Position numbers and translations under genes: made by a program. The notes beneath the pieces were generated by a model. The model searched no databases. It was not told where the DNA came from and saw only the letters and a program-made list of their open reading frames with translations. Of a stretch of DNA of 64,000 bases, positions 50,742-59,300 are shown piece by piece; position 1 is the first letter of the stretch; each line of letters begins with the position of its first letter. The DNA comes from Eledone cirrhosa (taxonomy: Eukaryota), in assembly GCA_964016885.1 (NCBI GenBank), contig OZ024742.1, forward strand, positions 74,834,001-74,898,000, given 5' to 3'.

Positions 50742-50835
50742 ACCCCGACAGCTGAGCTCAAGCCGTTTCGACGGCTAATTCTGGACTAAATGAAAATTTA
50801 TCCTGGTATTTAAATAGCCGATCTTCTCAAGGGGT
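50742..50835 (-). ncRNA. Type I hammerhead, U3-A8 core (family F)
   Basis: ACCCC-TTGAGAA-GA(T)CGGCTA...TAGCCGTC-GAAA-CGGCT(TGAGCTC)AGCTG-TC^GGGGT. Confidence 0.9.
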
Positions 50836-52434
50836 AATTCCATATATGGTCAAAGTGATTGTCAAAAATCAGTAGTAATTCTGTGGTTGCAAATTAGTAG
50901 GGGAGATGGTGGCTAAACCTGCCAGTAGGAGAACGAGGGGAGGGGGTGGAGTAGACCCAATCAAGCGTTGGTAGTGCCAGCTACAGCTGGGCATGAGGTC
51001 AAAGAAGATACAGGGGAGGAGGAGGGGGAGGAAGTCGGAACGGTAGGTAGAACAATGGTGGGTAGAAATATATAGGAAAGAAAAATACTGAGAGTGAAGA
51101 AAAGCAAATAAGTGTAAAGAAAAAAGTAAAGTAAATTAAATTCTACGACCTAGGTCTCAGGCTATTGTTAGGCTAGAATAAAATAAAGAAAGAAAGAAAG
51201 AAGTAAAGAAATAAATAAATAAATAAATAACGAAATAAGTAAAAGAACTAGGTGGGACGGAATAGGCAAGGACCCTTTTAAGAGGTATAAGTACGTAAAT
51301 GATACGGTGACGGGTCAACAAAAGGGGCCAAAATACTAAAGAGACTACCACGAAATAAACAATAAAGGTTTCCATCCCGGGCCAGCAACGACCCAGTGCA
51401 GCAAAGTGAACTTGTACGAGATAATAATTCTGAGTCCCGAGAAAAATATATACTAATGCTAACTCTAAAAGATCTAAAACAAGCTACATGAAAGTTCGTA
51501 CGAAATAAATTCAGAATCCACCCCGCCCAGAAGAAAAGCGAAGCAAGAAATACTGAAACGAAAAAATAAGGCATAAGTGCCACTAAGAAATATAGAGGGC
51601 ACAGAGAATAGTGGGAGCGGTCGGAAAAAGGGGGCAAGTATCCGGGGTCTAAGCCAACTGCTATAAAGGGCGGAGTCCGCCAAATCTATCATAGACTAGG
51701 GGAGGGGGTGGTGGGGGTACTAAGGCTACATGGGGCCAAAGGGCAGCCTCGGGTGGGCGAGAAAAGACGCCGACAAAGGAGAAGAGCTGGGGTAGAAGGA
51801 CTAAGGAGAGAGGGGGGAAGGAAATAAAGGAAGCGATAAAAGAATACAAAGAAGATCTTACGTCTTCCTTGGCAGGCAGGGGTTACCCGTTGCAAAATCG
51901 GCAAGTGGGGTGTTATAGCCCTAGTCTACCCCCCCGGGTCATTATGGGGTTTGAGGGCGAGGTAAGTCTTACGCAATCTATGTTTACATGCAGTAACCAG
52001 TTCATCTTTCTTGTTTAGGAGTTGGTCCGTCGAAAACAGCATTTGTAAAGTTTCCTCCGAGCATAAATTGCACGGACGGCGTCCTCCCGTGTAAGAATTG
52101 GCTCTGGACAGTAATCTCAACTTTACTTTTTTCTTTACTTTACTTTTTTCTTTACACTTATTTGCTTTTCTTCACTCTCAGTATTTTTTCTTTCCTATAT
52201 ATTTCTACCCACCATTGTTCTACCTACCGTTCCGACTTCCTCCCCCTCCCCCTCCCCTGTATCTTCTTTGACCTCATGCCCAGCTGTAGCTGGCACTACC
52301 AACGCTTGATTGGGTCTACTCCACCACCTCCCCTCGTTCTCCTACTGGCAGGTTTAGCCACCATCTCCCCTACTAATTTGCAACCACAGAATTACTACTG
52401 ATTTTTGACAATCACTTTGACCATATATGGAATT

Positions 52435-52528
52435 ACCCCTTGAGAAGATCGGCTATTTAAATACCAGGATAAATTTTCATTTAGTCCAGAATTAGCCGTC
52501 GAAACGGCTTGAGCTCAGTTGTCGGGGT
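52435..52528 (+). ncRNA. Type I hammerhead, U3-A8 core (family F, inverted copy)
   Basis: Same fold; predicted cleavage after C52523. Confidence 0.9.
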
Positions 52529-52785
52529 CTTACTGGTTCCTATATATATATATATATATATATATATATATATATATATATATATATATATATATATATA
52601 TATATATATAGTAAGGTGCATTATTGGTTGTGTAAAATGTTCCAATAACTTTATGTTAGCAATATTAAGATCTCCACGCTTTTGTATATCTCCAATTCCA
52701 TTCAAGGGAACAGCTAGATGATGTAAAACGGAGTATAAGTATCAAAATGAAAATCCGAAGGCAAGGTAAAATTCCAATCATTTAA

Positions 52786-52860
52786 TTACGACACATGTTT
52801 CAATAAGAGATAGATCGATTGTGAAGCCATGATCGATTATCACTGATCTCATCAGGTGAA
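52786..52860 (-). ncRNA. Type I hammerhead with short stem III
   Basis: TTCAC-CTGATGA-GATCAGTGATAATCGAT...ATCGATCTATCTCTTATT-GAAA-C(ATGT)G-TC^GTAA. Confidence 0.78.
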
Positions 52861-53109
52861 AATGAATTGTCTTCAAATTCCTGATATGAGGGAGAAAAAA
52901 TAACGATGTTCTCTCACAGAATTCATTCCCTCATATGAAGACACACCAGTCAGAGACACGGCGACTGCTATTAACTTCAGTTGAGGTCATAAAAGTTTTC
53001 AGATTTCTATTGCTGCAAAAGACGCTGGACATCAATCAAATCTGTAGGAATACAGTCAGTCAGAGTTAATGTGAGTGGGTACACACATTCCACACCCACA
53101 TACACCGGC

Positions 53110-54570
53110 TCGAGGTGCCCTTAACTTTGCTAGCTTACACACCGACCTTACATCCGAAGAAATTAACATTATTCTCCTAGCTAGGAAAACCTTAATTAAA
53201 TTCAACGGTGACCTGTGGACCAGGAAGGATTGACCAGAAAATTTCGAGATCACCATGGGATCCACGGACTCGGCCTAAGTGACGGATCTGGTGGGCCTTT
53301 ACCTCCTGGACTGTCTCGGAGTGGAAATGCCCCACTTGGGAGGAGGCGGCGCTTACCGTGACGACGCTTTGTTTACTGTGTCGTTCCATAATGATAGTAT
53401 GGTAGAGAGGGTGAGGAAAAAACTTAGCAAATTCTTCAAGAACATAGACCTAAGTATAGTATTTGAAGAGAACTTAAAGATAGTTAATTTTCTAGATGTT
53501 ACACTTAACCTCAATTCAGGACTCTTCCAACCCTACCACAAACTCAACGAGAATCTAAACTATGTCAACGCAAAATCGAACCACCCTAGAATAGTCACTA
53601 ACGGTATTACCAAAAGCGTCTCTAGTAGAATTTCAGGACTATCTTCCAATGAAGATACCTTTAATAAGATCTCGAATTACTATAATAATGCCCTGGAACG
53701 CGCGGGGCATAGTGAGGGAATCTCATTCAAACGTCCATTAAATAGTAGAAGCAACATTGCCTGCGATAGCTTAGGCTTAAATAGTGACACTCTAGTTAAC
53801 AGCAAGCGTGATACGAGGGAGGATTTATATAGACTTCAATGCTGTTGGTACCAATAGAAACAACCACCCAGGTACTAACACGGGGTCTGAGCAACGTAAC
53901 GCCAGCGGAAACTCTAATGGTAACCTTAATTGTGGAACCGATAAAACTGCCGTTGAACGCAGTATGGAACGAGGGTCGAGTAAGGGGAAATAAGGATAGG
54001 TGTAGCAGACGCATAGTGGATACAACCCCGGCTATCGAGGGTAATCACAATGGCCGCACGGGGGGTACACCGCCCTGGAGACTTGGGACTATTCCAATCA
54101 CAATCGTGACATCCCAGGACACCATCGACCCACAGGCAATTTCCAGTTACAATAGACCAGTAACTACTAGGGAGACAGGTAATTCTAATATAGTTAGTAA
54201 GAACAAGAGGCATCGGATCAGAAAAATCATGTCGTATAATCCCCCTTCCTCCGCTGGCCTGACCACTAGTATAGCTAAGCTTTTCTTTAGGGCCTTAGAC
54301 AAATGCTTCCCTAGATCGTACAGATATTATAAAATATTCAATAGAAAACCCATCAAGCTGTCCTACTCCACAACTTGTAACATAGCTCAGAATATAGCTA
54401 AGATGAATTATAGTAGAATTAGGAGAGCCCATGAGGGAATTAGGCATGGCAGGAACAATGGCAGCTCTATTGAGGAACTGACTCATACACGTGAGGCGAG
54501 TCGGGTCTCCCCAACCCCAGGGAATTTACCCATAGAGCAGACAGGAACTGAGACCCGACCCCAAAGGTAC
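53110..54570 (+). mobile_element. Internal fragment of a Penelope-like element (Hydra-like)
   Basis: FEITMGSTDSA, AYRDDALF, NFLDVTLNL, SNHP, YNPP, KLSYSTT. Confidence 0.88.
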
Positions 54571-57370: not shown

Positions 57371-57539
57371 GTTTCTCCAGAATATCAGAATATACGTACA
57401 TATATATATATATATATATATATATATATATATATATATATATATATATATATATATATATATATATACGTACATATATATATATATATATATATATATA
57501 TATATATATATATATATATATATATATATATGTATATAT

Positions 57540-57955
57540 GAAAATAACAGATTAAAGTTTAAGCAAAAAATCGCTGCTTTCACCCTTAATGGGATCTTCT
57601 GAAACAAAACAAAGTCAATCTGTGAACGTAGAAGTGAATACTTCAAAAAACGTTGCAACCGGAGGAAGACAGGAAGACGATATTTTGGTTCGTAGAAACG
57701 TTCCCTGGCAAAGAACGGGAAAAAACGAATATAATACGTCATTATTTGGAGCGGTGAAAAACAATTACACGCAAAGACAAAACCACGTTTATGGTATAAA
57801 AGAAGTCGTAGACTAATATTCTATTAGGTGGTTCATAGAGACGTTCTCTGGCAATGAACGAAAAAAAACGAAGATAATACGTCATATGTGGAGCGGGGAG
57901 CACAATCGCACGCAAAGACAAAACCACGTAAATGGTATAACTGAAGTCGTAGAGT
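57540..57955 (+). repeat. Unclassified dispersed repeat with internal tandem of about 130 bp
   Basis: 57540-57655 recurs inverted at about 63110-63225; 57690-57815 resembles 57830-57955. Confidence 0.6.
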
Positions 57956-58618
57956 AAAATTCTAACTAGGAAACCAAATGATTCTCGGCTTCAGAATTTA
58001 GAATAAAGTAAAAAAATACAGAGGTAATTGAAATTAAATAAATACATACACGCATCCATATACGAACATACACAAGCATACGCGAAAACATTCGACATAG
58101 GTATACAAATACACGCACGTACACAAAAAAACCCCAAAAAGCCGCACGCACATACAAACCCACGCAACACCTGTACCCACCTTATCGAGCCCTCTTTGGA
58201 TTTTAGTCTTCAAATTTATTATTATTACTATATATATATATATATATAAATGAAAAGTATAGAAATTGTTGTAGCGAGAAGCTAACAGTATTCCATAACA
58301 TATATATATATATATATATATATATATATATATATATATATATATATATATATATATATATATATATATATATATATATATATAATATATTTAGAAACAC
58401 ACAGATACATGCGGACACACACATATATACATGAATGCATCCGCACCCAACGGCCTCGATATGAATACCCCCTCCGCCTCCGTGGTATTTTCTTCATGGT
58501 TATAAGAGGCTTAGCTCTGTTTCTCGACCGTTATATCGCGTGACTATCTCCCCCTCCGCCTTTTGGGATTCTTTCTCACGTCGTGTAGACGCGTTCTTGA
58601 GACTAGTAAAATGAGGTA

Positions 58619-58706
58619 TCCTCTTGATAAGTCGGCAGACCTCGCAAGGACTCTATATCTTTGATATATTGTTTTTGTTTATGCCACGAAACTACGTAGT
58701 CGAGGA
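58619..58706 (+). ncRNA. Type I hammerhead, U3-A8 core
   Basis: TCCTC-TTGATAA-GT(C)GGCA...TGCCAC-GAAA-CTA(CG)TAG-TC^GAGGA. Confidence 0.9.
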
Positions 58707-59212
58707 ATTTAGGAGCAGTTTAGGTATGATACATTTTATTACTAATTATATCTAAATGTTTCTTCTCTCTTCATAATGTATTTTTAACTCTGATACTGGT
58801 TCAGTCTGGTTCAAACTGAATTGGTCTGTCCCAGTCATTCATTGAGCAACATCGGTGAAGTTGGCACCCTTAACTCACAGTTGGGTGCGGATGCATTCAT
58901 GTATATATGTGTGTGTCCGCATGTATCTGTGTGTTTCTAAATATATTGTTAATAACTCCCTCTGGTCGAGCAATCTTTGAAGTGTGGAGACAACTGGAAA
59001 GCTTCCATTACTCATACTTCTCGCCTTCTTCACTACCTCTTCTACGGCCTCGATATGAATACCCCCTCCGCCTCCGTGGTATTTTCTTCGTGGTTATAAG
59101 AGGCTTAGCTCTGTTTCTCGACCGTTATATCGCGTGACTATCTCCCCCTCCGCCTTTTGGGATTCTTTCTCACGTCGTGTAGACGCGTTCTTGAGACTAG
59201 TAAAATGAGGTA

Positions 59213-59300
59213 TCCTCTTGATAAGTCGGCAGACCTCGCAAGGACTCTATATCTTTGATATATTGTTTTTGTTTATGCCACGAAACTACGTAGTCGAGGA
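59213..59300 (+). ncRNA. Type I hammerhead, U3-A8 core (second copy)
   Basis: Identical to 58619-58706. Confidence 0.9.

Follow-up and report, generated by a model that had tools for sequence, protein, structure and literature searches.

Predicted U3-A8 hammerhead ribozymes in Hydra-clade Penelope-like elements of Eledone cirrhosa and a large lineage with a mismatched C3.A8 core

We analyzed a 64,000-nucleotide stretch of the Eledone cirrhosa genome (contig OZ024742.1 of assembly GCA_964016885.1, positions 74,834,001 to 74,898,000 of the forward strand; hereafter, the window), in which several repeat families carry a predicted hammerhead ribozyme with a U3-A8 pair in place of C3-G8. The genome measures 3.0 Gb, and the 64-kb window contains a high density of Penelope-like elements (PLEs) that have inserted into (TA)n runs. 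The U3-A8 swap itself is known; what is new is that approximately 1,300 copies of one family have a mismatched 3-8 pair, C3.A8, with the remaining motif intact. The explanation that we favor, and hold to be probable, is that type I U3-A8 hammerheads reside at the 3' ends of Hydra-clade PLEs and in tandem retrozyme-like units, where they likely cut tandem transcripts to unit length as dimers. Directly supported are the folds, the host elements, the conservation of core and stems, the repeated switching of the 3-8 pair and the long C3.A8 phase in the family designated A.

U3-A8 hammerheads and their host elements

Because Rfam gave no match at the gathering threshold in the window, canonical C3-G8 motifs included, we wrote a type I hammerhead descriptor in which positions 3, 7 and 8 were left free. 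Its strict form yielded seven matches in the window, compared with three summed over 20 shuffles. The type I anatomy (three helices around the core, GAAA, and the A15.1-U16.1 / H17 site) was present in three families, A, B and C, and all seven of their window copies have U3-A8 as a Watson-Crick 3-8 pair. The base of helix II is G10.1-C11.1 in families A and B and U.U in 28 of 32 rows of family C. A sequence-only reading of the window had placed eight variant cores in hammerheads. Its motif coordinates all proved exact on recheck, and seven of the eight cores lie in type I U3-A8 hammerheads, whereas the core at 59601 does not. Its claim that the stems share no sequence between families was overstated, as A and B both have CCNC/GNGG in helix I and G-x-CGGC/GCC in helix II.

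The family A motif consists of helix I (ACCCC/GGGGU), the core UUGAGAA, a long-loop helix II, GAAA, helix III and a GUC site. One copy (50742..50835, minus strand; U3 at 50830 and a predicted cut 3' of C17 at 50747) is located inside the 3' pseudo-long terminal repeat (pseudo-LTR) in sense orientation relative to the element, and the second (52435..52528, plus strand; U3 at 52440, C17 at 52523) belongs to an inverted copy of the 3' end. Both are hosted by a Hydra-clade PLE insertion that lacks its 5' part and is bounded by (TA)n runs (50649..52543, minus strand); it comprises a C-terminal remnant of GIY-YIG (52150-51929), a 1.1-kb 3' untranslated region and the inverted 3'-end copy (52134-52543), and is 95% identical to the near-full-length copies L162 and L164. 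In L162, an open frame of 786 codons for reverse transcriptase and endonuclease (RT-EN) is flanked by two direct hammerheads at a spacing of 3,118 nt. The family A open reading frame (ORF), P0001, is a single RT-EN ORF with the motifs RWR, DKT, CNCPDRSIC, CNLC..E and CKH and with GIY-YIG at its C terminus.

In the window, family B forms a partial tandem array, non-coding and retrozyme-like (58384..59375, plus strand), that lies between (TA)n runs and has a 591-594-nt unit and a short inverted 5' piece; its longest ATG frame is 75 aa. Its motif has helix I UCCUC/GAGGA, the core UUGAUAA, a palindromic helix III and a GUC site. The two window hammerheads (58619..58706 and, in the next tandem unit, 59213..59300, both plus strand) have C17 at 58701 and 59295, so that the predicted monomer spans 58702-59295 (594 nt). 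Across loci, arrays contain one hammerhead per 591-595 nt, with up to five direct units and three inverted ones, and U3-A8 was found in 99 of 100 copies among the matches listed. The circular monomer fold has z = -4.9 relative to 30 shuffles. We found no parent PLE of family B among the loci examined.

Family C fits the descriptor only when re-registered, with helix I UAUU/AAUA, the helix III palindrome ACGGUCGU and cleavage after GUA. In its 32 rows, proximal helix I is fully paired in 31 and helix III in 29, and U3-A8 occurs in 31 of the 32 listed copies. The U.U that opens helix II corresponds to a tolerated natural variant, the U10.1-U11.1 mismatch (Perreault et al. 2011, PMC3088659). In the window, the copy at 63788..63888 (minus strand; H17 at 63792) is a minimal hammerhead with this U.U and an intact palindromic helix III. 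The copy at 32189..32289 (minus strand) follows a broken Hydra-clade ORF (34788-32850) at a distance of 565 nt downstream. Helix III of this copy is damaged, identically to that of the inverted copy at 35701..35801 (plus strand); a G>U change in this helix is thus common to two of the three copies in the window. A fourth U3-A8 family, F, is a Hydra PLE outside the window and has U3-A8 in 100 of 100 copies among the matches listed. Pseudo-LTRs, inverted 5'-truncated copies and (TA)n targets were found for the Hydra-type families A, C and F, which are Hydra-clade PLEs as assigned by ORF motifs and element structure; for C, the ORF motifs were read from fragments. Exact patterns occurred 5,182 (A), 6,230 (B) and 863 (F) times; reversed control patterns did not occur.

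Selection on the fold and repeated switching of the 3-8 pair

The sequence-only reading had taken fixation of the core across copies as a sign of selection. Fixation in a young family reflects recent amplification, and identity among young copies is therefore uninformative; accordingly, we compared the majority sequences of subfamilies. For eight subfamilies of family A, variable columns numbered 0/11 in the core, 3/34 in the stems and 174/323 elsewhere. Position N7 takes A, C, G and U over these subfamilies while the other 11 core columns are invariant (p = 2e-4, to be taken only as a guide, as are the other p-values of such column counts, since subfamily groups were defined from the trees). 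For three subfamilies of family B, the corresponding figures were 0/12, 4/30 and 90/267. Because core and stems are near-invariant among majorities whose flanks vary, these results support purifying selection on the fold in the master lineages of A and B.

When core type was mapped on a protein tree, the U3-A8 families were scattered among C3-G8 families. In this tree of 16 rows, A groups with K and C with G, both of which are C3-G8 families, and F is placed with M and N at weak support; the links between ORF and motif were checked for K and M, that of N is uncertain, and the G motif is atypical. A single U3-A8 clade, and with it a single origin of U3-A8, was rejected (approximately unbiased [AU] test, p = 4e-6). 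This interleaving indicates that the 3-8 pair has switched repeatedly, although a similar pattern could arise if families exchanged their 3' ends. The earlier view that at least three unrelated families use U3-A8 is supported insofar as several of them share only 36-44% protein identity.

A mismatched C3.A8 phase in family A

A base other than U at position 3 is present in 1,362 of the 5,182 matches to family A; of these, 97 of the 100 among the matches listed are C3.A8. Only 64 matches are not A8, four of which are C3-G8. The family totals are about 3,765 U3-A8 and about 1,310 C3.A8 copies (~25%), at odds with the proposal that U3-A8 is fixed across copies. The expectation that single mismatches would not be as common as U3-A8 fails in part, with C3.A8 at about a third of U3-A8 in this family. 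In the contigs of an independent run, C at position 3 amounted to 24% by depth; in a further run of uncertain kind, X6, it amounted to 4% by depth.

For the family A tree, copies were sampled mostly from contig C1 with deliberate enrichment for C3 and old copies, the position-3 columns were removed, and 95 rows were thinned from 121 usable of 147 copies. In the resulting order, two older U3-A8 groups are followed by a series of well-supported C3.A8 nodes and then by U3-A8 again (support 100/96), and the youngest U3-A8 subfamily, at the end of this ladder, includes the window copies. A constraint placing all U3 rows together was rejected (p-AU 1e-74; rows from L271 and L257 as well as L280m dropped, two sporadic C3 rows left free). 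A terminal C3.A8 clade had first been suggested by 33 of 34 rows, but once older subfamilies were added, the C3.A8 copies formed a grade along the trunk. On the ladder, the difference between copies and the majority of their group declines (10.0, 6.0, 5.1, 3.9, 4.0, 3.0, 3.1 and 1.9%), which favors rooting at the old end. If the root lay within the C3.A8 series, U3-A8 would have arisen twice from the mismatch; with either rooting, C3.A8 is placed by the tree on the path between U3-A8 groups. A small U3.G8 clade was amplified as well (five rows, support 100/98).

Along the C3.A8 ladder, changed columns numbered 0/11 in the core, 1/34 in the stems and 123/522 in the flanks (p about 1e-4 for core and stems together). 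Because this ladder between U3-A8 subfamilies kept the rest of the motif, the 3-8 pair appears to tolerate a mismatch in vivo, which would imply either that C3.A8 still cuts or that cutting is dispensable. The latter is taken further if what preserves the fold is a structural role, such as that of an RT-EN binding site, with cleavage vestigial and position 3 drifting between U and C. About 1,310 C3.A8 copies, across which roughly a quarter of flanking sites changed, would fit such drift, as would the stems' carrying most of the conservation signal and the report that PLE insertion in vitro is independent of cleavage (PMC11167929). We nevertheless consider this account unlikely, given the invariance of 11 core columns over eight subfamilies with N7 free, the retention of U3-A8 in families B (99/100), C (31/32) and F (100/100) among the matches listed, and the dominance of C3-G8 and U3-A8, rather than random pairs, in the genome sample described below.

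Another account supposes that C3.A8 elements are catalytically dead and are cut in trans by co-existing U3-A8 transcripts through the palindromic helix III and an identical helix I. Helices I and III are indeed nearly identical across subfamilies, and the ages of the groups overlap (3.9-5.1% for C3 groups and 1.9-10% for U3 groups). However, the parts of the enzyme strand (helix II, GAAA and the rest of the core) are also retained on the C3.A8 ladder, and the trunk itself is C3.A8, so that trans-cleavage seems rather improbable.

It has finally to be considered whether CUGAGAA is a canonical core in a shifted register, in which C3 pairs with G7, N7 is absent and an extra A precedes helix II. 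G7 is present in 93 of 97 C3 copies among the matches listed, and an extra base after A9 is described as typical of PLE hammerheads (Cervera & De la Pena 2014, PMC4209133). Yet G7 outlasts C3, persisting after the return to U3, and backbone changes at A6-N7 are expected to harm the core (PMC3088659). Moreover, the change to G7 falls on a branch with 16-18% difference, so that its coincidence with C3 is unremarkable. The register shift is thus unsupported, and we regard it as very improbable.

Predicted dimeric cleavage

Under the explanation favored here, cleavage by dimers, read-through transcripts of tandem copies would pair through the palindromic helix III, as their anatomy and the mechanism described for other PLEs (PMC4209133) suggest. 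The duplex energies fit: the helix III self-duplex has -21.3 kcal/mol in family A and -12.9 kcal/mol in family B, and in both families the probability of helix III in the monomer is about 0.1. The predicted dimer would cut at GUC or GUA and release unit-length RNA of 3,118 nt in L162 and of 594 nt in family B. U3-A8 cores are reported to be active in vitro (PMC3088659). Ribozyme mutants of an anole PLE were reported to insert normally in vitro, and cleavage there needed protein (PMC11167929). Cleavage would help propagation without being strictly required. If it is helpful yet dispensable, a pyrimidine-purine 3-8 pair, even C.A, can persist through many master elements, and the C.A mismatch would be the likely bridge for a core moving between C-G and U-A. 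A C.A wobble may form at the 3-8 position.

Several points weigh against this explanation. Protein rooting of family A gave no resolved root, and the core taken by itself gives marginal evidence of conservation on the C3.A8 ladder (p about 0.06), with the stems carrying most of the signal. Minimal PLE hammerheads are reported to cleave poorly in vitro (PMC4209133). In one type III hammerhead, only a G3-C8 swap rescued activity and other changes there gave low activity (PMC9901934), so that cleavage may be slow or absent with U3-A8 and even more so with C3.A8. In addition, AGCCGUC occurs twice in the family A motif, so the monomer can form a hairpin burying GAAA, which is 2.0-2.3 kcal/mol more stable in two of the three folded copies; this alternative hairpin is a possible off-state of monomers.

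Abundance of core types and comparison with known systems

We scanned an even sample of 100 regularly spaced 10-kb stretches (1 Mb). At score 25, the strict scan gave 47 C3-G8, 9 U3-A8 and 1 C3.A8 matches, compared with 1.8 per shuffle. The relaxed scan, limited to recurrent families (19 further non-recurrent matches were excluded), gave 68 C3-G8, 10 U3-A8, 1 C3.A8 and 1 U3.G8, in total 80. C3-G8 and U3-A8 thus dominate the sample rather than random 3-8 pairs, and U3-A8 is a minority, accounting for about an eighth of the hammerheads in this genome. The suggestion that U3-A8 might be a major overlooked class is not borne out, as it makes up 10 of 80 recurrent matches against 68 of C3-G8 and had been published for PLEs (PMC4209133). 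Five low-score U3-A8 matches in an AT-rich tandem repeat (L146) were taken as chance. The density of hammerhead-like motifs in the sample, 57-80 per Mb, extrapolates to ~170,000-240,000 genome-wide.

The closest published case is that of the Cercyon PLEs of Schistosoma mansoni, for which about 1,300 U3-A8 matches were reported along with about 2,000 of standard core (PMC4209133). Like the motifs described here, those are abundant type I hammerheads with U3-A8 and a palindromic helix III, associated with pseudo-LTRs and often in inverted pairs. Unlike Cercyon as described there, the present motifs reside in PLEs of the Hydra clade and in a retrozyme-like tandem repeat, loop II has 40-75 nt, and family A has a monomer-capable helix III, a competing hairpin and a large C3.A8 lineage. 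The hosts resemble the Hydra clade (Craig et al. 2021, PMC8557442) in their C-terminal GIY-YIG, RWK-like and DKT motifs, CxCX5C linker, (TA)n targets and hammerhead near the 3' end; the hammerheads reported for that clade are canonical, whereas three Hydra families here carry U3-A8.

Family B looks like an animal retrozyme. As in the non-LTR retrozymes described from animals (PMC7229834; bioRxiv 10.64898/2026.07.22.740005), it is non-coding and tandem, has <45% GC and contains one type I hammerhead per unit. It differs from those described in its unit of about 590 rather than about 300 nt, in U3-A8 and in its PLE-like inverted 5' pieces. Natural U3-A8 covariation, compatible with activity, and U10.1-U11.1 are common to the present set and that of Perreault et al. 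(PMC3088659), where they are described from rare examples; here, they occur in thousands of copies and with a persistent unpaired 3-8 state. We found no published report of an amplified C3.A8 lineage; further hammerhead studies beyond the search may hold C3.A8 rates or PLE core variants.

Other motifs in the window

Three further repeat families contribute hammerheads with the canonical C3-G8 core, unmentioned in the sequence-only reading, at 28942 (plus strand), 37764-37819 (minus), 42300-42355 (minus) and 56346-56403 (plus). A minimal hammerhead with CUGACCA at 28009 (plus) probably derives by decay from a C3-G8 family of Penelope type. The motif of family G, the sister PLE of family C, has the C3-G8 core CUGAAGA (48240..48357, plus; inverted copy 45075-45192, minus). 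It keeps GAAA and the palindromic helix III, has a weak helix I, and in all four copies seen has A.A as the basal pair of helix II; it is possibly another atypical hammerhead.

The TTGAGAA of family D (59596..59650, plus), previously proposed as a decayed hammerhead core at 59601, lies inside a 540-bp repeat (59421-59960). It fails as a hammerhead because neither GAAA nor helix I is present in 34 aligned rows, and no alternative hammerhead parse was found in 33 long copies. The repeat is abundant (2,227 candidates) and has a PLE-like partial tandem structure, with no hammerhead found.

Two more small U3-A8 hammerhead families were seen among the loci, at L040:2194(-), L202:6129(-), L095:2486(+) and L166:130(+). 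Short pieces of the 3' tail of family A, running from helix III to the end and lacking the core, are nested at 48517-48793 in inverted and tandem arrangement. The sequence TAAATACC(A/T)GGATAAA is found both in loop II of family A (52468-52484) and directly downstream of the family C cleavage site (35797-35815). An unbroken 540-codon frame among repeats (24386-26008, plus) encodes an AMP-binding (acyl-CoA synthetase-like) enzyme.

Implications

Descriptors restricted to CUGANGA would miss ~1/8 of the hammerheads in this genome. The family A series lends itself to a bolder proposal, which we put forward only tentatively: the trunk of an autonomous PLE lineage may have carried the unpaired C3.A8 through many masters and ~1,300 copies, while selection maintained the remainder of the ribozyme, and may then have gone back to U3-A8; the reason would be that C3.A8 itself works as a core in a dimeric or protein-assisted ribozyme. 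If this is true, the series would record, like a set of fossils, how a catalytic RNA crossed a base-pair valley. It also bears on the question of whether PLE mobility depends on cleavage by the ribozyme and on the route to a compensatory swap in a catalytic core. Because natural, near-identical U3-A8, C3.A8 and U3.G8 versions exist together with an open RT-EN frame (L162), both points are directly testable.

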